A stretch of 38,116 nt of DNA, taken from a virus (lineage: Duplodnaviria > Heunggongvirae > Uroviricota > Caudoviricetes). The DNA is taken from the IMG/VR virus record IMGVR_UViG_2541047893_000008. The stretch is one strand, 5' to 3'. Of this stretch, positions 5,117 through 36,852 are shown one piece after another. The notes under the pieces are model-generated. The model was not told where the DNA came from, made no database searches, and worked only from the letters and a program-made list of their open reading frames with translations. The translations under genes and the position numbers were made by a program. Position 1 is the first letter of the stretch. Every line of letters begins with the position of its first letter.

Positions 5117-7939
5117 ATGACGGCAGAGTACATCAGGGACTGGCAACAACCGCGCCACGCAGTGGGGCGTGAAGGAACGGGGATCCCCGCTCCTGAATCC
5201 GCGCTTTCCTCCTGGCTGGATGCCTACCGGGTAGAGAACGAGCACCGCCAGGAAATGGCTGATGCGGCGTTCTCCGCAACGCCGCTGGGCAACCTGATTA
5301 ATAAAAGCCTGAACGCACAGGAAAAACAGGACAAAACCATCACACTGGCAGGAGATGCCAGAAAACAGGCACGCGGCGCGGTGGATGAAGCCATGGCCTC
5401 GCTGCGCCTGCTGCCGTCCTATCTGCGCGATCCGCTTATTCGCCACCTCTCCTTCCTGCGCAAAAAACAGGAAGCCGATCGTCAGAAAGGCAAAAAGAGC
5501 TGGCAGGCTGAACGCTACGCGCGCGGAAACCTGCGCAAAATATTCGAACGTCTGGATCGCACCGATCACCGCTGGCTGACACAGGGTTATCGCTCCCTTG
5601 CCGGACGCGAACGCCTGGACGATTTGCTTTACCTGCCGCAGCTCAACAAACACCAGATACAGACACTGGCCACCATGACGGCGGCGATGTTCAGCAGCAC
5701 CTTCGAAAAACTCTGCGATGGCTTTGGCGCGACCGATGGCGAACTGACCATGGATGTAACGCTGAAGGCGTATCAGATGCTGGCCCGCATGGCGTTACAC
5801 CTGCACGCCATGCCTCCACATTATGACGCACTGACAACAGACAAAGACCGGAGGAACGAACCGGACACGGAGCTGCTGCCGGGCGCAATCCTTCGCCTGA
5901 CCTGTGCAGAATGGTGGAAACGCAAACTGTGGCTGTTACGTTGCGAGTGGAGAGAAGAACAACTCCGCGCCGCCTGTCTGGTTTCCAGAAAAACATCGCC
6001 CTATCTGAGCCAGGACGCGTTAAGCGAGTTTCGCGCACAGCGCGAGAAAACACGCGATTTCCTGAAAAGTTTCATGCTGGAAAATGAAGACGGGTTCACG
6101 ATTGATCTCGAGACGGTGTATTACGCGGGAGTAAGTAACCCGGTTCACCGTAAGGCAGAAATGATGGCCACCATGAAGGGGCTGGAACTTCTGGCCGAAG
6201 CCCGTGGCGACAAAGCGGTGTTTCTGACTGTCACCTGCCCGTCAAAATACCACGCCACAACAGAGAACGGTCATCCGAATCCCAAATGGAACGGGGCCAC
6301 CATGCGCGACTCCAGCGATTACCTGGTTAACACGTTTTTTGCGGCGGTCCGCAAAAAACTGAACCGCGACGGTCTTCGCTGGTATGGCATCCGCACGGTG
6401 GAGCCTCACCATGACGGCACCGTGCACTGGCATATGATGGTCTTTGCGCATCCGGAAGAAATCGACAGCATCGTGGCCATCACCCGCGATATTGCCATTC
6501 AGGAAGACCGCCACGAGCTGGGCAATGATATTACTCCGCGCTTTAAGGCGGAGTATGTCGACGGCTCAAAAGGCACACCAACCAGCTATATCGCGACCTA
6601 CATCGGAAAGAACCTGGACAGCCGCGCCGTGGATGGCATCGACCCGAAAACGGGCAAGCCACGCGTTGACCACGAAACCGGAAAATCAATGGCCGAGAGT
6701 GTGGAGCGCGCCATCGGCTGGGCGCGCCTTCATCGGGTCCGCCAGTTCCAGTTCTTTGGCATCCCCTCCCGTCAGGTGTGGCGTGAACTGCGCCGCCTTG
6801 CCAGCCAGATGGCACGCAACCCGGAAGGCCCGCAACGACTGAAAGATGACGCAATGGATGCGGTACTCGCTGCCGCCGATGCCGGGTGTTTTGCCACCTA
6901 CATTGAAAAACAGGGCGGCGTACTTGTTCCACGCAAAGACTACCTGATTCGCACCGCCTACGACCTCGCAGATGAGCTGAATGATTACGGCGAACAGAGC
7001 GTACAGATTTACGGGATCTGGTCACCACTCATCGGGGAATCCTCCCGTGTGTGCACGCATCCGGATAACTGGAAACTGGTAAGACGTAAACCGGAAACGG
7101 AAGACAGCGCCCGCGAAAATGGTTTTGACCTTCAGGGCGGCCCTGCCGCCCCTTGGACTCGTGGCAATAACTGTCCCCGTGTACAGGAAACGGACAACAA
7201 CGGGACAGAACAGCCGGAAGAACGGCCAGCACCGTGGCCGCAGCTCCCTGACGGCGTTGAAGTGAACGAATGGATGCGCTCACTGAAACGACACGAACGC
7301 CGGGCGCTGATGCGTTCGCTTCGTGACAAACAGGCAAAAAACAGCAGCGATGAAATGCAGAGCTGGACACAGAGCCGCAAACAGCAGCGGCCTTTGCCTG
7401 ATAACCACGAATTACTCGCTAAAGAATGGCGGGAGTCTGCTGAATCTCTCGGCCTGCATATCGGTGAACAACAGATGCAGCACCTGTTACGGGGCGGCAG
7501 TCTGTACGTTGACGGCAGCATCATTGCACCGCAGGGATTTGAAATTGTACGCAAACCGGATACCCGCCCGGACAGCCGAATCACGCAGCTCTGGCAGCGC
7601 CTGAGCCGTAATCACGGCGTAAGCAGCACGGAGATCCGCCATAACCCGGTCTCCAGCTATCTGGCACAGCTCGGGGCATCAGACCCCGAAGCCGCCGCAC
7701 GCCTGGCATCCACACTTCAGCAGGTCCAGAACACCATGAAAACACCCGTTACCGTGCTTTCTGACATGCTGCGCGCCATTCGTGACGCAGAGCACGCACA
7801 GAGAATCAGAGAAACCACTGAACGCGCCCGCCGCAAAGCAAACCTGCTGAGGACTGGCCTGACCAGTGGAAACAAAAAACAGACAGAAACGGGATTCACA
7901 AATCCCGTAAATGAGCAAAAAACGCGCCGCGATATATGA
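5117..7939 (+). CDS. A: Rolling-circle replication initiation endonuclease (P2 gpA family)
   Basis: 940-aa ORF with HUH motif (HWHMMVF) and two-tyrosine motif (TSYIATYIGKN); conserved blocks (VFLTVTCPSKYH, GIRTVEPHHDGT) match P2 A. About 180 aa longer than P2 A at the C-terminus. Confidence 0.9.
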   Translation: MTAEYIRDWQQPRHAVGREGTGIPAPESALSSWLDAYRVENEHRQEMADAAFSATPLGNLINKSLNAQEKQDKTITLAGDARKQARGAVDEAMASLRLLPSYLRDPLIRHLSFLRKKQEADRQKGKKSWQAERYARGNLRKIFERLDRTDHRWLTQGYRSLAGRERLDDLLYLPQLNKHQIQTLATMTAAMFSSTFEKLCDGFGATDGELTMDVTLKAYQMLARMALHLHAMPPHYDALTTDKDRRNEPDTELLPGAILRLTCAEWWKRKLWLLRCEWREEQLRAACLVSRKTSPYLSQDALSEFRAQREKTRDFLKSFMLENEDGFTIDLETVYYAGVSNPVHRKAEMMATMKGLELLAEARGDKAVFLTVTCPSKYHATTENGHPNPKWNGATMRDSSDYLVNTFFAAVRKKLNRDGLRWYGIRTVEPHHDGTVHWHMMVFAHPEEIDSIVAITRDIAIQEDRHELGNDITPRFKAEYVDGSKGTPTSYIATYIGKNLDSRAVDGIDPKTGKPRVDHETGKSMAESVERAIGWARLHRVRQFQFFGIPSRQVWRELRRLASQMARNPEGPQRLKDDAMDAVLAAADAGCFATYIEKQGGVLVPRKDYLIRTAYDLADELNDYGEQSVQIYGIWSPLIGESSRVCTHPDNWKLVRRKPETEDSARENGFDLQGGPAAPWTRGNNCPRVQETDNNGTEQPEERPAPWPQLPDGVEVNEWMRSLKRHERRALMRSLRDKQAKNSSDEMQSWTQSRKQQRPLPDNHELLAKEWRESAESLGLHIGEQQMQHLLRGGSLYVDGSIIAPQGFEIVRKPDTRPDSRITQLWQRLSRNHGVSSTEIRHNPVSSYLAQLGASDPEAAARLASTLQQVQNTMKTPVTVLSDMLRAIRDAEHAQRIRETTERARRKANLLRTGLTSGNKKQTETGFTNPVNEQKTRRDI

Positions 7940-8015: not shown

Positions 8016-8975
8016 ATGAAAATTTGTATCGACGACGGCTCCACCAACATCAAGCTGGCATGGACTGAGAATGGCGAACGCCGCAACGCCATCAGCCCGA
8101 ACAGCTTCAAGTCGGAATGGTCTGCGCCGTTCGGTGGCATGCAGCCCGCGAACTACATGCTTGATGGCGTGCGCTATGGTTTTGATCCGGTCAGCGATCG
8201 CTTTGTCCAGACGACCGACACGCAATACCAGTACAGCGATGTGAATGTAATCGCCATTCATCACGCGCTGGTCAAATCAGGCATCACGCCACAAGAGGTG
8301 GATGTGGTTGTCACCCTGCCACTGAGCGAGTATTTCGAGACAAACGCACAGCCGGACATGGCCAACATCAACCGCAAAAAAGCGAACGTTATGCGCTCGG
8401 TGGAGTACCAGAACGGCGAAGCATTCACTATCCGTAACGTGCGGGTTATGCCTGAATCCATTCCGGCTGGCTTTAAAGCACTGGCTGACATGAGTCCGTT
8501 TGAATCCCTGCTGATTGTGGATTTAGGCGGAACCACGCTGGATGTGGCAAAGGTTCAAGGGCAACTGGCAGGTATCAGCCAGGTGTTTTGCGATCCACAC
8601 GTAGGCGTTTCCCTGATGGCCGATGCCGTACTGTCGGTGATGGCCACTAACGGTATGCGCACCAGTCACCACATCGCCAATACCATTATCGAACATCGCC
8701 ATGATGAAGCCTGGCTGCGCCAGCACATCCACAATGACGCGCATTACGCCAGCCTGATGGCGGTTATTCGTGAAAAGGAAGAAACACTGAAACAACGCGT
8801 GATCCGCGCGCTGGCGGTTTTTTCGGGTTACGGGCGGGTGATGGTTGTCGGTGGAGGGGCGGAGATTGTGGCACCCGCTATCCGCGAAGTCTGCGGAGTT
8901 AATGCGACTTTCATCGCGGACGGGGTGCCACAGTTTGCTCTGGTTAATGGGCTGTACGCAATGGACAAGGAGTAA
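8016..8975 (+). CDS. parM: ParM/StbA-like actin-fold partition ATPase
   Basis: 319-aa ORF with actin-fold signatures: phosphate-1 (IDDGSTNIKL), phosphate-2 (IVDLGGTTLDV), adenosine motif (VVGGGAEIV). N-terminus resembles plasmid R1 ParM from memory (MLVFIDDGSTNIKLQW...). RBS AAGGA. Confidence 0.88.
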   Translation: MKICIDDGSTNIKLAWTENGERRNAISPNSFKSEWSAPFGGMQPANYMLDGVRYGFDPVSDRFVQTTDTQYQYSDVNVIAIHHALVKSGITPQEVDVVVTLPLSEYFETNAQPDMANINRKKANVMRSVEYQNGEAFTIRNVRVMPESIPAGFKALADMSPFESLLIVDLGGTTLDVAKVQGQLAGISQVFCDPHVGVSLMADAVLSVMATNGMRTSHHIANTIIEHRHDEAWLRQHIHNDAHYASLMAVIREKEETLKQRVIRALAVFSGYGRVMVVGGGAEIVAPAIREVCGVNATFIADGVPQFALVNGLYAMDKE

Positions 8976-8979
8976 ACCA

Positions 8980-9294
8980 ATGACGACACCAACCAGACGG
9001 ATAAGTTTCTATCTGAAGCCCGCCGCCGTCAAGAGTGAACAGGAGGCGTGCAATTACCTCGATAGCCTGCCAGCCTCCGAACGCAGCCGCGCGCAACGCG
9101 CGGCCTTTCTGGCTGGGCTAGCGCTCATAAAGCGCAACCCAGCATTTGCCTACTGGATGGCCGAATGGCCAGAGGACAACCTCCCCTTCAATACCGTTAG
9201 CATCAAGGAAACATACCAGGATAATCAGCCTAGCGGAGTTGAATGCAATTTTTATAAAATTGCAAAGAATATTCAGACCTTATTCCCAGAATAA
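8980..9294 (+). CDS. parR: ParR/StbB-like small DNA-binding partner (putative ribbon-helix-helix)
   Basis: Small ORF immediately downstream of parM (start 5 nt after the parM stop, RBS AAGGAG). N-terminus RRISFYLKP followed by two helices (EQEACNYLDSL; SERSRAQRAAFLAGLAL) fits the RHH pattern of type II partition adaptors. Assignment is inference from context and pattern. Confidence 0.65.
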   Translation: MTTPTRRISFYLKPAAVKSEQEACNYLDSLPASERSRAQRAAFLAGLALIKRNPAFAYWMAEWPEDNLPFNTVSIKETYQDNQPSGVECNFYKIAKNIQTLFPE

Positions 9295-9343
9295 TCTGAT
9301 AATTGTATGTGAACTAATAAAATACAGACCAACACATCATTCT

Positions 9344-9366
9344 GGCACCCTTGCTAACAGGGTGCC
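9344..9366. terminator. Hairpin between convergent parR and the AT-rich membrane module
   Basis: ggcaccc-ttgctaac-agggtgcc: 8-bp stem, 7-nt loop in the 83-bp convergent intergenic gap. Confidence 0.4.
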
Positions 9367-9377
9367 AATGTTTCAAA

Positions 9378-10214
9378 TCATGATGAAATTGCCGAAGTTT
9401 TTTTATCGTGCTGAAGTACCGCAAATGCCATTAAAACCTCAAGAGAATAGCGGCGATAATACTTAACAAAACCATAATAAAATACTCGGGATGCAGCAAT
9501 ACAAAACAAGAGAAGAAAACAAAAAGGTAACAGTCTGATATTTATATCTATTAAAAAGGATAGAAGGAGCAGGAACATAAGCAACCAGACTGAAGCGAGA
9601 AAAACAAATGTAATGTTTCTACAAAAACCATACAAAGCAACATAGTTTTGCATTTTCACCTGATGATTTTTAGAATGTTCATACACATAATGATAAGCAA
9701 GGCGAAAAAGATCGCCCCTCAAGCCCTTACGTCGATATAGCGTAGATAAAACATTTATATAACCATCTCGTATTTGCGGCCAAAAGACTTTAATAAGTAT
9801 AGAATGCAGTGTGGTTTTATGATGTTCTGCTTTATCAAAAGCTGATACAGGAAATAAAAAAACTCCACGAATAAAATTAACTATACTGAACTTAGTATTA
9901 TGTCGTTTTATTTTCAGGGAGCTTCTTTTAGAAAACAGATAAATTGAAGGATACCCAAGTTTACTGTTCATGTATTTTTCAATTAAACAGGATGATAGAA
10001 TAGATATGAAGTGACCTGAAATATATGATAGAACGATTAATACCACATATATAAATACACTTATTATTTCTTTATATTTCAGGATATGGTTAAGAATACC
10101 TTCTATATAAACAGGGTTAATTTCAATAGAAAACAAAAAAAGGATAAACAGGAATAACCCACCTGGAATTAGATAGCCCAAAAAGTCATAAAATGAAAAC
10201 GGATTCTGTGTCAC
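9378..10214 (-). CDS. Polytopic membrane protein of unknown function (278 aa), AT-rich cargo gene
   Basis: Several long hydrophobic segments; codon composition much more AT-rich than the phage backbone; second gene of a two-gene leftward operon; RBS GGGGGAAG. Confidence 0.7.
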   Translation of the reverse strand: MTQNPFSFYDFLGYLIPGGLFLFILFLFSIEINPVYIEGILNHILKYKEIISVFIYVVLIVLSYISGHFISILSSCLIEKYMNSKLGYPSIYLFSKRSSLKIKRHNTKFSIVNFIRGVFLFPVSAFDKAEHHKTTLHSILIKVFWPQIRDGYINVLSTLYRRKGLRGDLFRLAYHYVYEHSKNHQVKMQNYVALYGFCRNITFVFLASVWLLMFLLLLSFLIDINIRLLPFCFLLLFCIAASRVFYYGFVKYYRRYSLEVLMAFAVLQHDKKTSAISS

Positions 10215-10253
10215 ACTTCCCCCTGTGTTACTTGTAAATTAAAGGGTAAAACA

Positions 10254-10751
10254 TTATTTGTTTTTCCGTAAAGGATTAGCTTTCCATCTTCTTACTAACC
10301 ATTCGAATTCTTGATATGTAGTATCCGAATTAATGCTTTCTCTGATTGCTTTAATTAATGGCTCGGCAATATCATATGTCTCTACAACTGTTGTGTAAGA
10401 TGTTCTTTTTATCATTTTTTCATCATAAATACCTTCACGAATACTTACAGCAACTCGCTCGTAAAAATTTAAAATATATTGAAATTTTCGGCGCTCGGCC
10501 ATTTCTTCATCTGTTATTATGCAACCATCACAAGGAAAAACATAAGAACGAAATGATTTGCCTGAACGATGCACTTGTTTCAGGGTATGCAATGACTCTA
10601 TATATTGCATATCTTGCCGACTCTCAAAAAGAAAGTTGGCCGTTTGAGTTTTTTTTGCGGTACGCACATTGTAGATAATGGTTCCAATGGCAACCAAAAC
10701 GCCAAGCAGAACAATAGTATTGCTGATGATTTGTAGTGTTATTGGGTTCAT
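10254..10751 (-). CDS. N-terminally membrane-anchored protein of unknown function (165 aa), AT-rich cargo gene
   Basis: Single N-terminal TM helix (ITLQIISNTIVLLGVLVAIGTIIY) followed by a charged soluble domain; first gene of the two-gene module; no family recognised. Confidence 0.7.
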   Translation of the reverse strand: MNPITLQIISNTIVLLGVLVAIGTIIYNVRTAKKTQTANFLFESRQDMQYIESLHTLKQVHRSGKSFRSYVFPCDGCIITDEEMAERRKFQYILNFYERVAVSIREGIYDEKMIKRTSYTTVVETYDIAEPLIKAIRESINSDTTYQEFEWLVRRWKANPLRKNK

Positions 10752-10771
10752 CCTATTTCATCCATAAAAAA

Positions 10772-10792
10772 GGCGGGGAGCAAATCCCCGCC
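10772..10792 (-). terminator. Rho-independent terminator-like hairpin (ggcgggga-gcaaa-tccccgcc) with a U-run on the minus strand, 14 nt upstream of the cargo-module start codon
   Basis: GC-rich 8-bp stem, 5-nt loop, followed on the minus strand by a T7 run. Oriented to stop leftward transcription coming from the Q-P operon. Confidence 0.6.
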
Positions 10793-10948
10793 TCATTAGA
10801 GGTCAACGTAGCTTAGAAACCATCAAATTCATCATACATTTTATTCATATCAACCCCCTCATAGAAATCATAACCACGTTTTGTGGTTTTTGTGACGTAT
10901 AAACTACATCAAAGGCAAGCCACGGTCAAATATATAGGCATGCTTACC

Positions 10949-10975
10949 TGCACAAAAGTGCACAAATTTGCACAA
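10949..10975. repeat. Three helically phased direct repeats (TGCACAA every 10 bp) in the cos region
   Basis: TGCACAAAAG TGCACAAATT TGCACAATTT seen directly; resembles a phased protein-binding array (terminase or host-factor site). Confidence 0.4.
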
Positions 10976-11071
10976 TTTTTTTGAACGACTTTTTACCCTT
11001 CCGGCCCGCATGGCGGCTGGATCCGTCAAGGATCCGTGCGTGCACAAAAAAACGCGCTTTTTCTGCGCGCA

Positions 11072-11090
11072 GGTGACGGGGGAACAGCCC
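11072..11090. other. Candidate cos (cohesive-end) site
   Basis: GC-rich 19-mer ggtgacgggggaacagccc in the ORF-free gap between hotspot and portal gene, where P2 cos lies. About 13/19 match to my recollection of the P2 cos sequence. Tentative. Confidence 0.3.
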
Positions 11091-11399
11091 GCGTTTCAGG
11101 GGGTAAATAGTATTCCCTGAGCGATGTCGCAGCGACATAACAGAATGGCCATATTTCTCACGCTGAGCGTGAAAAAGATGTGAGGGCTTTTGATTTGATG
11201 GGGTGAAAGGTAAGGCCGTCAAAATCGCACTGAGGCGGTGAGAACATGCAGTCAGCGCGGTGGGATTGCGTAAGAGTCTGACCGTCGATGATGGTAATAA
11301 ACAGGAAAGCGTCGTGAAATTATCTGATTGATACAGGAGCTGGAGAGTCGGGGCATAAATTTTTTATGCCCCGCCGAAGCAGCAGACAAGCGAAGCGCG

Positions 11400-12446
11400 T
11401 CAGGATGTGGGCTGGGTGTCTAACAGTGCGTAAGGGTTAAAGCGAATCACCTCTTCGCCAAGCCAGTCATTGATGTGCTTCATGGCCTCCATGACGGGCA
11501 TCAGCTCGTTAATTGCGTAAACCCGCGCGGCCTTCTCCACATCACCAAACGCACTTTTTTCGCCTGGCATCGCCCCCATCAGTTGCGGCGGAACGCGGTG
11601 CGCAGCCAGCACATCATCACGGGATGCCACCTTAACATTCATGAACTCATCCTTTGCGGTGATCTGCTGGAACGGCAAAATTTGCACCCCCTCTTTGCCA
11701 CCGTTGGGCGCATGAATGAGCACGTTTTTAAACGCACCACCACCACGCGCACCCTGTAGCGTTTCTTTCAGGGAGTCCATGCTTTCGCGGTTTACCTGCG
11801 CTGCACCGATGTAGATGATGCACCCGGCGTGGGATCCGTTGTCGTAATACAGTTTTCTGAACATGTCCGCCGAATGAGACAGGCTGGCCGAGAGTAATGC
11901 GCCGAGATATTCCGGCATGCCGTAGATTTCCTGGTTAATGTCAGGATTCATCAGGTGGCACACTTTGCCAGGGCGAAACTGAAACGCGTCCTTGCCATCC
12001 TGCACATACCACCATGATTCAAGATCGCTTCCGCGTCGCATGTATTTCGCCAGGGCGTGCCGTAATTTAAGCGGTTCGCCGAGCATATTGCTTCGAAGCT
12101 CAAGGAATGCGTTACCGAACACAAACCAGTCCAGCGCCAGCGCCGAGAAATCCTGCCGGGAAAGCAACGGGTGCGGGATGTAGCAACCGAGTAATACATT
12201 GCGCTTAAAGTAAAGCGCAGACTGATGCCAGGACGTTTGCCGGGCAGCTCTTGCCAGACCGTACCAGTCCACCGGGGTTTCATACCACCGCCCGTTATCA
12301 GCACAGTACATATTGTCCAGCAGGTCATGCCCGGTCAGGCGATAAGGACCATCAAATGTGAATGCACTGAGCGATGATTCTTTCCTGAGCGCATCAGCGA
12401 GATCAATGCGTGAACTCATGCGCACTTTTTTATTTTTTCTGCTCAT
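11400..12446 (-). CDS. Q: Portal protein (P2 gpQ family)
   Basis: 348-aa leftward ORF immediately downstream of the large terminase gene (ATGA overlap); size and position match P2 Q. Confidence 0.88.
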   Translation of the reverse strand: MSRKNKKVRMSSRIDLADALRKESSLSAFTFDGPYRLTGHDLLDNMYCADNGRWYETPVDWYGLARAARQTSWHQSALYFKRNVLLGCYIPHPLLSRQDFSALALDWFVFGNAFLELRSNMLGEPLKLRHALAKYMRRGSDLESWWYVQDGKDAFQFRPGKVCHLMNPDINQEIYGMPEYLGALLSASLSHSADMFRKLYYDNGSHAGCIIYIGAAQVNRESMDSLKETLQGARGGGAFKNVLIHAPNGGKEGVQILPFQQITAKDEFMNVKVASRDDVLAAHRVPPQLMGAMPGEKSAFGDVEKAARVYAINELMPVMEAMKHINDWLGEEVIRFNPYALLDTQPTS

Positions 12447-24033: not shown

Positions 24034-24906
24034 GCATGTACAGCGCCGCATATTATTTTGGGGCTAGAGTGGTAGGCAGCAATTAACCATCCTTACTCGG
24101 GGAGCAAAGGCGAGTGGGCTTCTGCAAAGAATAAGGTCACTACAGATGCCGGTTGCGGTAACGCTTTTCTTGAAGGTGAAGTCAATGAAGTGATTGTGCC
24201 TGGCGGCTCGACTACCATTCGCGTAAATGCGCCGAGTTCTTTCAGCGGGGGTGAGATTACTGAGCCCGAAATCAATTCCATTATACATAGCGTTAATTAA
24301 GATCATGGATGGAGAGGTGATTACATTACGGGAAAGCAGCTTCCTGTATTTGTTTTAGCGCAAGCAGGGCGCACGGTCACAAATCATACTGATGTTGGCA
24401 CCGTCGGTCAAACCGCTGTTTAGGATGCAGCAACCAATCGCGCGACAAAATTCACGAACGCCCACAACATGCTGGCTTGTAACAGCGCGCGTGTACATTT
24501 TTGCGTGAATTCCATGTACGGCAGTATCTCCAATCTTTGCGGGAGTCTGGGTATTGGAATGGCTGATGCCTTGTGAGGAATTTACATCACATCAGGCAAA
24601 CACGATACTGGGTTTGAAGGAAAATATGCTCGGGCGCTAGATGCTTAAGGTAATGTTGCGCATGTACTCCTCTTTAGTAATTCATCTGTTCTATCATGAA
24701 AGGGTACTGGCTCTGCGGACAGGAAAGGTTTCGTCGTTACAGGTGCAATTACCGCTGACCGTGATGCATCATTTGATTCATGGCAAACTTGGTCAATTCC
24801 AAATTGTGTAAAGGGGGGTGGGGATTACGCGGGGAATTTCTATAGTCGACGCACTACAGAAACCTTAGTGATATTTACTGTAAACGATCAGATCCATACA
24901 AGCTAC
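24034..24906 (+). pseudogene. Remnants of the distal (receptor-binding) part of the tail fibre, broken by multiple frameshifts and stops
   Basis: Fibre-like peptide stretches in three different frames (SKGEWASAKNKVTTDAGCGNAFLEGEVNEVIVPGGSTTIRVNAP...; KGTGSADRKGFVVTGAITADRDASFDSWQTW...GDYAGNFY...), each ending in a stop; no ORF over 100 codons. Confidence 0.45.
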
Positions 24907-25387
24907 TGAGGTAACTTAAAATCCAGTTGTTTGAAACAGAGTATGCTTGACACAGATCTGAATAACGAAGTAATTAACTGCCAAACACTTAACATCTGGT
25001 GCACGTCCGGTCATGTGTTGTCTTTTATATATGTTCGGGAGACTCATTAAATCATCGCCAAGGATATTGCGTCGTTGTATTACATGATCGTTCAGAAGAT
25101 TATAGATCTGACATTTTATATTAATGCGAGCGCTTAATATGAGTAGTTGTAAGGACATCATAGCCGGTAACGCTGCAACGCCGGAAGACTGAAAATTAAC
25201 AAAGAAGCCTGCTGCCATCCGGCATTAATCAGAAGAAGGTAAAAACCTCACAGAGACAGCTAAGCATTTTCTCTCAGACGAATAAAAAAATGTTAACGAA
25301 GAAAATACTATTTTCGCCGCTATCAGAATATATGGTCAATTCCATACTGCCGAAAATGTTACCGGAATAAACGTAACGAGAGTAGGC

Positions 25388-25600
25388 TTGAAACCGGGCC
25401 TTAATTTTTACGGTAACTTTAGGTTTCATGCTGGCTCTGCCGTATCCACACGGTTGACGACAGATGAGCAGCGTCCACATGAAGCAACACATGAGGCTTC
25501 GTCACCCGTCGACGTAGAAAGCCTTATAGAGCCTCCGGAACGCGCTGTAAGGCTTAACGCGGCGGAGAATGAGGCAGGCGTACGACATGAGGCCTGGTGA
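25388..25600 (+). pseudogene. Remnant of a tail fibre assembly (chaperone) gene C-terminus
   Basis: Track ORF 25388..25600 ends ...IEPPERAVRLNAAENEAGVRHEAW, resembling the conserved C-terminus of P2 G / Mu U-type assembly proteins; upstream part not in frame. Confidence 0.35.
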
Positions 25601-26560
25601 TGCTATAGTTCTATCGTATACAGTCTGGTTACGACAGCGCCCTCCTTACACCACCAGCCTCATTAGTCATTAGCGCCTCGGATGAAGCCAACTTCCAGTC
25701 CCTTAGTTCCGCAAAAACTACTAGCAGTATGGAATTGTGCATAGATGCTACTAGCTGCGAAAAGATCATTTTCTCTGTTAACTTTCGTTAATTCTTCTCG
25801 GAGAAAGTGCTTAACCTCAGCATAGAAGTTTTTCCCTGCTTCTGATCACTGACAAGTTGCAGCATGCTTCTCTTTTAACTCTCAGCCTTCCGCTGCTTTT
25901 CTGCCTCGCGCTTAGTTCGCTTTTCAACGCATCATTCTAAGCACACGCTTTAATCCGCCATGTCACCTCTGTGTATTGCTGTAATGTCATGTAATTCAAC
26001 CCCGCTATCGTATTGCCGATTTAGGGATCTAACTCCCTTACCAATATAACTAATAATGCCTTACTTGAAGGGGACTGGTAGTACCATGTTTGGCAGTAAT
26101 TCCTATTGTTCCTTTGATGAGTTCTTAGCAGCACATCATTAACACCATTGGAATCTAAATTGTTTCAGTTGCTTGGTTGTATCTTTCCTTTTACAGTTAA
26201 CGGCACCGAGGTATTTGTATTTCGCCAACTATAAAAATTCCACCCGGAATCCTAACCCCGATCAGTGCCAGACGGTACTGGCGAATTCCCCCTCGTATTA
26301 AATGATTCATCACGGGCTCCGTTATCTGAACCTGAAAGTGCGAATAATGTACTTTCAGAAGCGTGAGGACCATTTAATGATTGAACAGAGCCCTGTCTAA
26401 CCCAGCATACATCTGCAATAAAAGCAGAATCATCCTCCGCCTCAGTACATGTACGAACAACCCCAGTAGAGGTTTTGCCTATAGCTGTGGAATACCCCCC
26501 CCGGTTAGCTGCAAAGCCATAACCATGACGCGCTGTAAAATAAAAAATAACGCCGTACCT

Positions 26561-27184
26561 TTAGTTAGAACGATAATATCCTGGCCGATAGCTACACGCC
26601 TTAATGGTGAAGGGGATGATGCTTTCCGTCGCGCCATTGATAGCTGCCCACTTAAAAGTTCTTTGACAGTCGGAGTCATCCGCATTAGGATTAACAACCC
26701 TTAGTCCTTCTTCCCCAAAAACTAGTGCAGGCAGCTGCCTGCCTTCAATGTAAAAACCTCTCCATACATGAGCATCAGCATCGCTAGGTTTAATGGAGGT
26801 GATTGGGGGCTCAGTAGTCCCGTACGCGGAGAACTTACTTGGCGCAGATAAGCCTCTATCAGTCCCGCCACGAGGGCTTACCACTCCAACCAATGCACAT
26901 TCATGACTTGCATAACCGCAACCGGTATATGTGATCACCTTATTCATTCTGGAAGCCAGTGAGCCTGTGCTGCCTCAGGAACGACGGAAAAAAACTCCAT
27001 GCCACTCTAGCCAAACTACATTAGACGGCGCATTAAATGCGTGACTATGCATACCATTTTTCTTACATGCCTCATATGCGCGGCAGGCACCAATGTTACT
27101 CAGGAAGCGATCCTTATCAGGAATATCCGCGCCGTTCTGTTTTTTTTGTAATGCGCCAGAAGCCAGATTTACCGTTTCCTGCAA
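26561..27184 (-). pseudogene. Alternative (inverted-orientation) tail fibre C-terminal segment, interrupted
   Basis: Minus-strand ORF 26975..27184 starts inside the right gix site and encodes QETVNLASGALQKKQNGADIP..., a paralogue of the H sequence at the left site, but stops after 69 codons; fibre-like sequence continues in another frame (ORF 26561..26947). Confidence 0.45.
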
Positions 27185-35621: not shown

Positions 35622-35954
35622 ATGGCATTAATCAAATGTCCTGAATGCCAGAAAGAGGTGAGCGATTCAGCATTGTATTGCCCTGCTTGTGGTAAACAAC
35701 TGCAAAAACTTAAGCGTTCATTTTTTGGACGGATCATTAAGTGGGTTTTTATATTATTTAATATTTTTATGATCTATACGCTTTTAGTTGGAATAGGAGG
35801 CACTAGTGAAATAATAAATAATGCCACATCCGATGCCGAAAAAGCCGGTGCAGTTATTGGTACAGGCTTAGGTTTAATTACCATTGGAAGCTTATGGGTT
35901 ATTGGCGATATCATTATCGGAATTTTAGTATTTCTTACTAAACCAAAGGGATAA
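35622..35954 (+). CDS. Zinc-ribbon membrane protein (CPxC...CPxCG plus two TM helices), AT-rich cargo
   Basis: 110 aa; N-terminal Cys4 ribbon (CPECQ...CPACG), two hydrophobic helices; strong RBS AAAGGAGG; TTGACA -35-like hexamer about 85 bp upstream; AT-rich. Confidence 0.65.
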   Translation: MALIKCPECQKEVSDSALYCPACGKQLQKLKRSFFGRIIKWVFILFNIFMIYTLLVGIGGTSEIINNATSDAEKAGAVIGTGLGLITIGSLWVIGDIIIGILVFLTKPKG

Positions 35955-35958
35955 TAAA

Positions 35959-36852
35959 ATGAAAAATATAATTTTTTCTATAGGTGCATCATTTATATCA
36001 ATTAGTGTACTGCCTGTTCACGCAGCAACTGAACATAAGAACTTCAATGCAGTACTTCAGTGCCGAGCAATAGAAAATAATAAAGACAGACTTTCTTGTT
36101 ACGATAAGTCAATACAACCGACTCGAACGAAAGTTGCTGAAAAATTCGAAAGCAGAGATCAATGCCCTGATGAGAAAGATGATGATAGACGTTTATCTTG
36201 TTATGATCGTTTCTTTTCTCCAACATTTACTCCATCTGTAAACTCAAAATCTAAAACGGAAAAGCCAGTAACAACAGAGGCTCAGCAACCAAATCTTTCT
36301 GAGATATCTAAATGTCGTGCAGAAAATGATAAAGAAGCCAGACTAAACTGCTACGATAAACTATTCCCACAGGATAAAATCGCTCAAGCTGAATCAAAAT
36401 TAGAGAAAGCCACAGATGTAGGAAAATGGCACACATCCATTACTACATCGCCAATTGATGATTCGAAAAATGTAATTTTATCGTTAGAAAGTGATGATTA
36501 TATCAGAACTCCATTTGGAGAAGCGGTTACTCCTACTCTTTTTATAGCTTGCCGAGAAAAGAAAACCGAAGTATTTCTTAGTTGGGATGTATATTTAGGC
36601 CTTGAACAAACCAGCATGCTTTATCGCCTTGATAAACAGAAAGCAGTTGAGCGAAACTGGCTAGTATCTACAGATACAAAGGCTGTTTTTTATAAAGGTA
36701 ATGACATTGATTTCATCCGAAAACTAGCCAACTCAAGCAAAATGTATACAAAAATAACGCCTTATAATGAGAGCCCCGTAAGTGCAACTTTCAATTTAAA
36801 CGGCCTGTCAAACGCGCTAAAACCGCTTCAAGCTGCTTGTAACTGGAAATAG
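35959..36852 (+). CDS. Secreted/periplasmic protein with three Cys-containing repeats, AT-rich cargo
   Basis: 297 aa; signal peptide (MKNIIFSIGASFISISVLPVHA); three copies of a roughly 35-aa motif C-x7-9-(D/E)xRL(S/N)CYD(K/R)-x-F; start 4 nt after the zinc-ribbon gene stop. Confidence 0.7.
   Translation: MKNIIFSIGASFISISVLPVHAATEHKNFNAVLQCRAIENNKDRLSCYDKSIQPTRTKVAEKFESRDQCPDEKDDDRRLSCYDRFFSPTFTPSVNSKSKTEKPVTTEAQQPNLSEISKCRAENDKEARLNCYDKLFPQDKIAQAESKLEKATDVGKWHTSITTSPIDDSKNVILSLESDDYIRTPFGEAVTPTLFIACREKKTEVFLSWDVYLGLEQTSMLYRLDKQKAVERNWLVSTDTKAVFYKGNDIDFIRKLANSSKMYTKITPYNESPVSATFNLNGLSNALKPLQAACNWK

Follow-up and report, generated by a model that had tools for sequence, protein, structure and literature searches.

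We analysed a 38,116-nucleotide (nt) stretch of viral DNA, the IMG/VR virus record IMGVR_UViG_2541047893_000008 (hereafter the window), which is a P88-like prophage of Escherichia coli (Xuanwuvirus, Peduoviridae, P2 family) common among sequence type 131 (ST131) strains such as JJ1886 and EC958. Its genes are ordered integrase, C, Cox, A, ParM, StbB-like, cargo, cos region, Q and P. A preliminary description of this DNA had singled out the cargo between A and Q as an AT-rich, horizontally acquired module of two leftward genes, encoding a protein of 165 amino acids (aa) with one N-terminal membrane segment and a polytopic protein of 278 aa, that might act in defence, abortive infection or superinfection exclusion. 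Both genes are as described, with one hydrophobic segment in the first product and four in the second. Our analysis shows the cargo to be a single predicted operon in the cos-proximal A-Q hotspot, consisting of a promoter, a 5' stem-loop, a micro-open reading frame (micro-ORF), a terminator, a DUF4760 gene and a gene for a Csx27-like protein with four predicted membrane helices (Table 1). The conserved micro-ORF and terminator upstream of DUF4760 are the feature that the preliminary description missed.

The composition and site of the cargo were correctly described. The G+C contents (GC) of the two cargo genes are 0.317 and 0.349, against 0.51-0.57 for StbB-like, ParM, A and Q, and the cargo appears to have been acquired horizontally. 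A 2.3-kilobase (kb) segment around the cargo, used as query, matched 1405 of the 5426 complete E. coli genomes through the hotspot flanks. The cargo itself was matched in 289 genomes, about 5% of the total, and these include the pandemic ST131 lineage, in which the cassette is fixed. Other genes occupy the same A-Q site in P88 and related phages, the variability of cargo that characterises a P2 hotspot, and the gpA-portal interval is the main defence hotspot of P2-like phages (PMC9122126; bioRxiv 10.64898/2026.02.27.708500). The cassette is among the commonest cargoes of that hotspot and is not recognised by defence-finding tools. However, the extent of 9295-10800 first assigned to it was too short. 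Because backbone homology to phages with other cargo restarts at ~10942-10996, the cargo unit runs from ~9295 to ~10945 and includes the promoter, 5' stem-loop and micro-ORF, so that any fragment ending short of ~10945 would lose the native control region. Of the two hairpins reported to bracket the genes, both exist, but the upstream one is the terminator within the operon leader and not a boundary. The other, between the convergent four-helix-protein and StbB-like genes, may act as a terminator, judging from its position; it has no clear T-run on either strand.

Table 1. Features of the cargo unit, its flanks, and related solo micro-ORFs (window positions, unless a locus handle precedes the coordinates)
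Feature	Coordinates	Strand	Details
Candidate sigma-70 promoter	10901-10929	-	-35 TTGACC 10929-10924, 17-nt spacer, -10 TAGTTT 10906-10901
5' stem-loop	10872-10888	-	AACCACAAAACGTGGTT; upstream of micro-ORF
Shine-Dalgarno sequence	10860-10854	-	GAGGGGG; strong, precedes micro-ORF
Micro-ORF	10848-10813	-	11 codons, MNKMYDEFDGF-stop; previously unannotated
Intrinsic terminator	10766-10794	-	GAGGCGGGGA-TTTGC-TCCCCGCCTT + T-run; hairpin 10794-10770, ~-19 kcal/mol
DUF4760 gene	10254-10751	-	ATG start, 165 aa
Four-helix-protein gene	9378-10214	-	GTG start, 278 aa
Hairpin	9343-9367		TGGCACCC-9 nt-GGGTGCCA; between convergent four-helix-protein and StbB-like genes
A gene	5117-7939		one flank of cargo
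ParM gene	8016-8975		between A and StbB-like gene
StbB-like gene	ends 9294		borders cargo
Portal gene Q	11400-12446		other flank, with cos region
Solo micro-ORF	L142:6140-6163	-	
Solo micro-ORF	L157:4922-4945	-	
Solo micro-ORF	L137:857-880	-	
Solo micro-ORF	L162:3065-3088	-	
Solo micro-ORF	L133:8100-8260	+	

The preliminary description recognised no family for either protein and proposed profile and structure searches; profiles supplied a family for each, while neither family profile found anything significant among PDB sequences. The 165-aa protein matched Pfam DUF4760 (PF15956) at 120.2 bits (expect value, E, 1e-34), with residues 12-156 on profile positions 2-141 of 141, exceeding the gathering threshold of 25 bits over the full domain. 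Its gene carries the same annotation in RefSeq, and a PHROGs search assigned it to phrog_2284 (unknown function). Its single hydrophobic segment lies near the N-terminus (residues 8-26) and precedes a stretch of positive charge; from this hydropathy and charge the 139-aa C-terminal domain is predicted to be cytoplasmic. NCBIfam gave no match to the protein, and PADLOC gave insignificant matches alone (PDC-S35, E 0.004-0.015, in 2 of 18 family members). One seeming fusion of DUF4760 to a polytopic protein (P0229) was rejected as a metagenome chimera, its last 53 residues being identical to the E. coli protein.

The GTG start of the 278-aa gene is supported by the invariant N-terminus of its family, M-x-QNPFSFYDFLGY. 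Hydropathy placed four hydrophobic segments at residues ~12-30, 50-68, 204-222 and 228-250, and the 135-aa central domain between the second and third of these contains 21 K+R versus 6 D+E; the N-terminus, the C-terminus and this central domain are all predicted to be cytoplasmic. An AlphaFold2 model built from a 129-sequence alignment reached a predicted local distance difference test score (pLDDT) of 90.4, with long helices at residues 8-32, 48-86, 182-222 and 228-277, and had no counterpart among solved structures or viral models; an earlier model from a 14-sequence alignment (pLDDT 55.6) was unusable. At E <= 1e-3 the family numbers 1114 cluster representatives (50% identity), and 241 at E <= 1e-30. 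Its members come from Gammaproteobacteria, Betaproteobacteria, Bacteroidota and Thermodesulfobacteriota and are all labelled hypothetical, and its strongly conserved polar residues include Y14, Y64, G67, H68, S74, E79, H175, E179, H184, K187, N190, R199 and K251. Neither the protein nor its family members matched a Pfam family, NCBIfam gave no match to the protein, and PHROGs returned families of unknown function alone. A weak SieB match in Pfam for 1 of 129 family members (E 0.0013) was regarded as noise; against the superinfection-exclusion families of Pfam, SieB included, neither window protein gave a significant match at E <= 1. The window allele of the gene is two codons shorter than the common 280-aa allele (YINVL-STLY vs YINVFSVSTLY; window 9700-9760, minus strand), and in phage vB_EcoM-569R5 (ON470599) the match was limited to residues 53-278.

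The PADLOC model of Csx27, a Cas13b accessory protein of type VI-B1 systems (Smargon 2017, Makarova 2019), did match the 278-aa protein, with residues 6-242 aligned to profile positions 4-179 of 206 (E 1.4e-4, 20.4 bits). The same model matched 92 of the 129 family members (best E 2.2e-10) and the related type VI-B 'tm_4' model matched 27 of them. In Csx27 profile coordinates the N-terminal motif falls on 4-63 and the C-terminal half, with the helix 3-4 region, on 62-187. Because these matches are co-linear across the family, we treated the 278-aa protein as a remote homologue of Csx27 rather than as a close member; the two also share four predicted membrane helices. It is ~70 residues longer than the profile and its match is weak, and it is not Csx27 proper because cas13b is absent: its neighbours are DUF4760, StbB/ParM/A and cos/Q, with no cas13b gene or CRISPR array. 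The one activity known for Csx27 is repression of Cas13b interference (bioRxiv 10.1101/092577), the relevance of which to an E. coli prophage is not obvious. According to the summaries of Makarova 2019 given in passages of PMC7642515 and PMC11662929, the Csx27-like family extends beyond CRISPR loci, and the relation described here would mean that prophage morons of a genetically tractable host include members of a CRISPR accessory family that is uncharacterised.

The leader of the predicted operon was compared among DUF4760 loci. The promoter is a candidate by consensus match alone, and an alignment of DUF4760-bearing P2-like loci shows its element, TATTTGAC(T/C)-17 nt-TA(A/G)TTT, to be kept; other P2-like loci have a stem-loop at the same leader position with different stems (CCAC/GTGG, TTCAC/GTGAA). 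The terminator starts 18 nt past the micro-ORF stop and ends ~15 nt ahead of the DUF4760 ATG (10751), which leaves no room for a promoter between them; a short ORF and an intrinsic terminator lie directly upstream of a structural gene, as in a leader attenuator. Of 47 distinct regions upstream of DUF4760, 46 contained the micro-ORF, which ended in [D/E/N][D/E][F/W/Y][D/E]G[F/Y/I]-stop, a motif with one strict match in the window, that in the DUF4760 leader. FDEFDGF is the ending in most Enterobacterales and in some loci whose DUF4760 is only ~40% identical, and variants include DEFEWV, EGWDGF/Y, NEGWDF (Acinetobacter phage BUCTT20) and REEYEGI (Pseudomonas phage D14E). Conservation is centred on the last 6-7 codons, the N-terminal part being variable and the whole peptide 8-21 aa long. 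Within the main clade, variation in the six codons is mostly in the third position and synonymous (GAT 30/GAC 11, GAA 18/GAG 24, TTT 28/TTC 13, GGT 15/GGC 26/GGA 2, TTC 35/TTT 7), the stop codon varies as well, and the remaining differences are peptide variants. As the codon variation is mostly synonymous, selection acts on the micro-ORF peptide. The strictly conserved micro-ORF is a concrete, hitherto unannotated part of these loci across Enterobacterales, Pseudomonas and Acinetobacter phages.

A terminator-like hairpin followed the micro-ORF in 41 of the 46 loci. It was built from 16 different stem sequences, indicating that the terminator is conserved as a structure rather than as a sequence, and in Citrobacter phage Shae_phiSM the stem carries a compensatory G>A/C>T change. 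The distance from the micro-ORF stop to the stem was 5-50 nt, mostly 16-24 nt. Among the most distant loci, L059 and L060 lack the hairpin, and their micro-ORF stop overlaps the DUF4760 start (TAATG). The sole locus without a micro-ORF, L015, is of E. coli type; there unrelated sequence stands in place of the micro-ORF and of the terminator's 5' half (L015:5850-6000). The junction falls within the loop of the hairpin, which seems to have been used as a breakpoint for recombination.

Further conserved elements were seen around the micro-ORF. Just after its stop, P2-like loci carry TTRACCTCT, which is complementary to the Shine-Dalgarno region of the micro-ORF and is paired with it by RNAfold (window 10795-10812/10851-10860); this element could mask the ribosome-binding site of the micro-ORF once the leader has been fully transcribed. 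Directly past the terminator T-run, at 10757-10765 on the minus strand, the sequence ATGGA(T/A) is kept in many DUF4760 loci, including distant ones (TTTTCATGGA), and the window copy starts a 5-codon ORF (MDEIG) that ends in a stop overlapping the ATG of DUF4760. The micro-peptide also resembles acidic SSB-type C-terminal tails, such as that of T7 gp2.5 (EEADEDGDF); E. coli SSB ends in DFDDDIPF. This likeness is one of character and is mentioned as a lead, not as a claim.

The order of the elements is that of ToxIN and of leader-peptide attenuators, in which a promoter, a short element, a Rho-independent terminator and an effector follow one another with no promoter between. In ToxIN the terminator lies between toxI and toxN. 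The upstream element here differs from that of ToxIN in being an ORF of 8-21 codons and not an RNA repeat, and the leader differs from classical attenuators in that no antiterminator was found.

These two likenesses correspond to two ways in which the micro-ORF might work. It may be a cis-acting leader whose translation state sets whether RNA polymerase reads past the terminator to reach DUF4760 and the Csx27-like gene. Ribosomes might stall in a peptide-dependent manner, or the acidic nascent chain might destabilise them, and the trigger would be translational or ionic stress, such as that from phage infection. We regard this as possible but rather unlikely. The succession of Shine-Dalgarno sequence, short ORF, terminator and structural gene without an intervening promoter is the architecture of an attenuator, and conservation next to the stop combined with a variable N-terminal length is the pattern of arrest peptides. 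Moreover, the motif is better conserved than the downstream protein, suggesting a slowly evolving target such as the ribosome, and the anti-Shine-Dalgarno-like AACCTCT after the stop pairs with the Shine-Dalgarno sequence of the micro-ORF in P2-like loci. However, we found no common alternative helix in 12 diverse loci, and the 5' arm of the terminator was paired with upstream sequence no more than in shuffled controls. In most loci the distance from stop to stem is also too great for a terminating ribosome to mask the hairpin, the loci that lack a terminator retain the micro-ORF, and an Rfam scan of 9200-11450 gave nothing above noise.

Alternatively, the micro-peptide may inhibit DUF4760 in trans, in a toxin-antitoxin-like arrangement in which the terminator keeps the peptide message in excess. 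Shut-off of the host by an infecting phage would then lead to loss of the short-lived peptide and release DUF4760 to act, and phages would answer with mimics of the peptide. This explanation, too, we consider doubtful rather than probable. It would account for conservation of the amino acid sequence while codons vary, for the lack of a conserved antiterminator, and for the strong Shine-Dalgarno sequence of the micro-ORF next to the weak one of DUF4760; the terminator-less loci L059 and L060, with their overlapping stop and start, have a protein-level operon arrangement. However, the motif is near-invariant while DUF4760 falls to 35-40% identity, which fits a slow target such as the ribosome better than a partner protein, and free peptides of 8-11 residues are usually degraded fast.

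The peptide-gated explanation also draws on copies of the motif outside DUF4760 loci. We scanned IMG/VR for DNA encoding FDEFDGF-stop, for which ~0.1 matches would be expected by chance as estimated from the information content of the pattern, and found 36 stretches, 27 of them followed by DUF4760 and 9 not. Because such solo copies exist, the motif is a recurrent short phage element and not a DUF4760 leader alone. Four of the nine are T4-like Karamvirus genomes (L128, L132, L134 and L141), in which the N-terminal part of the micro-ORF varies and FDEFDGF is invariant. In Enterobacter phage PG7 the micro-ORF is an annotated 21-aa coding sequence (YP_009005317.1, MFSLRKFDEEDFDFFDEFDGF) between a-gt.2 and gp47 (NC_023561 34532-34597; L163:1164-1229), with a hairpin 5 nt downstream; the micro-protein is acidic, and the region is common to 42 phage records. 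Other solo micro-ORFs encode MLDEFEGFDEFDGF, upstream of holin genes in temperate-phage contigs, as well as MFDEFDGF and MKAFDEFDGF, and in a 183-kb contig a lysozyme gene is followed by tandem EENWGF/EEDWGL/EENWGV/FDEFDGF units. By tblastx, L137, L142, L157 and L162 showed no similarity to the window and so were not assigned to the P2 family. The presence of the same peptide ending in virulent phages suggests an arms race. Nevertheless, the solo micro-ORFs also precede hairpins, and so could themselves be cis elements. A literature search for DEFDGF returned irrelevant matches alone.

In order to evaluate whether the two cargo genes form one system, as the term two-gene module had implied, we considered how they are arranged here and how they occur elsewhere. 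Within this cassette the DUF4760 and four-helix genes are probably co-transcribed, as the gap between them is 39 nt, with a Shine-Dalgarno sequence and without a terminator, and the second gene lacks a separate promoter region. Among complete E. coli genomes, each gene was found in the same 289 genomes as the full cassette, with ~99% identity in most, and an O111:H8 variant keeps the gene arrangement though its four-helix gene is just 89% identical. These observations, together with the listing of both genes as one system by Rousset et al. (PMC9122126), favour the obligate two-component membrane defence of the preliminary description, for example a sensor and an effector. We nevertheless judge that explanation improbable. 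When the partner gene was sought within 6 kb of IMG/VR loci, using 52 loci per family alignment, 44 of 52 DUF4760 loci had no four-helix gene and the 8 that did were 98-99% identical to the window; conversely, 45 of 52 four-helix-protein loci had no DUF4760 and the 7 that did were at least 95% identical. Co-occurrence is therefore confined to a near-clonal E. coli cassette and was not seen across divergent lineages.

Each gene was instead found alone at comparable prophage sites. In many P2-like phages, and in a Xenorhabdus prophage, a DUF4760 gene of 76-89% identity stands by itself directly behind Q and cos, and Shae_phiSM has the same A-ParM-StbB backbone with DUF4760 alone, lacking relative to the window ~1.15 kb that corresponds to the four-helix gene. 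Four-helix homologues (41-47% identity) occur solo beside xis/int in lambdoid prophages of E. coli, Salmonella, Enterobacter and Klebsiella, preceded by AT-rich upstream regions of their own, and the family is mostly solo both in phages and in chromosomes. The simplest reading of these distributions is that two independent, separately mobile single-gene cargoes (morons) were stacked once in an E. coli P88-like phage, and that they are not a co-evolved pair. Because the two genes appear independent, each is to be considered alone.

The explanation that we propose, with our confidence in it evenly divided, is that the cassette stacks genes which the prophage expresses, under control of the micro-ORF and terminator, for exclusion or abortive infection at the membrane. 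Its first unit is an old and widespread three-part cassette of micro-ORF, terminator and DUF4760, and its second a normally solo Csx27-family gene, taken up downstream of the first and lacking its own promoter region. Most transcripts would end at the terminator, making the micro-ORF message abundant, and the two membrane proteins would be made by read-through only, at a low or conditional level. Both proteins would reside in the inner membrane with their conserved domains facing the cytoplasm, and each would separately protect the lysogen from other phages, either by excluding superinfecting phages at the membrane or through a membrane-based form of abortive infection. The micro-ORF would be either a cis-acting, translation-sensing leader or the source of a trans-acting peptide that restrains DUF4760. 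We infer an anti-phage action from the places that DUF4760 cassettes occupy. Besides the P2 hotspot these are moron-type sites: a Pseudomonas phage carries one directly after cI, an Acinetobacter phage has one adjoining its integrase gene, the Providencia copy lies in an ImmI-like region, and that of Serratia belongs to a cluster of tail-fibre morons. The role in defence or exclusion that was originally suggested is therefore plausible and unproven.

A more specific version of this explanation, which we think unlikely, is that the micro-peptide is the trans-acting key of a membrane-anchored DUF4760, together forming a novel peptide-gated module for exclusion or abortive infection that is widespread among temperate phages of Proteobacteria. 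The solo FDEFDGF peptides of T4-like Karamvirus and other phages would then be counter-defence mimics, and the Csx27-like protein would have a second, independent function at the membrane.

Several observations weigh against the proposal of stacked exclusion or abortive-infection genes. Neither window protein matched validated defence proteins, and the only hit that PADLOC gave was Csx27, for the 278-aa protein; Csx27 represses immunity rather than effecting it (bioRxiv 10.1101/092577). Distant members of the four-helix family are solo chromosomal genes in ordinary contexts, and Rousset et al. do not list the DUF4760 pair among the systems that they cloned and tested (PMC9122126). As regards independence of the two genes, 289 of 289 E. 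coli genomes carry both together, and the DUF4760 and four-helix proteins may cooperate inside this cassette.

Some of the same observations would fit cargo that is not anti-phage at all, with roles in lysogenic conversion or the phage life cycle (membrane homeostasis, DNA uptake, lysis timing or anti-defence) at a hotspot that merely tolerates it. A recognisable defence system was reported in only 49% of P2 elements (bioRxiv 10.64898/2026.02.27.708500), and 3 of the 8 additional P2-hotspot systems tested by Rousset et al. were active (PMC9122126). Besides the repression of Cas13b by Csx27, a passage of PMC7642515 citing Makarova 2019 describes a proposal that the Csx27 family forms single-stranded DNA channels linked to competence; distant four-helix members occur in housekeeping contexts, and the cassette is fixed in ST131, a successful lineage. 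However, the sites after cI, in the ImmI-like region and in the P2 hotspot where DUF4760 is found are classical exclusion or defence sites, hotspot cargo turns over rapidly, and the peptide ending shared by virulent phages points to phage-phage conflict. On balance, we see a role other than anti-phage as possible yet somewhat unlikely.

In their positions, lambda rexAB, P22 sieA/sieB, HK97 gp15 and P2 tin/old are of the same kind as this cassette, being AT-rich morons that encode small membrane proteins, but the cargo proteins have no sequence relationship to them. A much closer counterpart is P2-hotspot system 3 of Rousset et al. 2022, named 'DUF4760', which has the same two proteins save for a few substitutions and a two-codon indel, and lies in the same hotspot (PMC9122126). 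Its entry in Table S5B bears the number 1102, which we read as the number of loci, and the note '1 TM in protein 1, 4 TM in protein 2' (PMC9122126). The pair can therefore not be called undescribed. The catalogue treats it as one system of two genes, gives no function, and does not mention the micro-ORF, the terminator or the relation to Csx27 (PMC9122126), so that although the locus was already catalogued, the micro-ORF, the terminator and their recurrence in other phages are new features. The cargo sequences were absent from two supplement files of Vassallo 2022, and among the main texts of the literature searched DUF4760 appeared once, in an unrelated paper on a Serratia genomic island, with no mention of PF15956.

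Other features of the window were seen near the cargo and at a distance from it. Just upstream of the cargo promoter, at 10950-10975, three TTGTGC hexamers spaced by 10 base pairs (10975, 10965 and 10955) lie within the palindrome GTGCAAATTTGTGCAC and are kept in most aligned P2-like loci; they look like a protein-binding site, perhaps packaging-related (cos) or regulatory. Between A and the hotspot (8016-9294, plus strand) lies a plasmid-type partition module of ParM/StbA and the StbB-like gene, the 3' end of which (9125-9294) diverges from the Citrobacter phage copy. The A protein itself, of 940 aa, has merely 31-37% identity to the A proteins of other P2-like loci. Inside the late-gene region GC dips to 42-48% (24500-27000), and at the opposite end of the window (35622-36852, plus strand) there is a second AT-rich cargo of two genes (33-39% GC), one for a zinc-ribbon protein of 110 aa and one for a protein of 297 aa that has a type VI secretion system VasI-like domain (Pfam E 5e-25).

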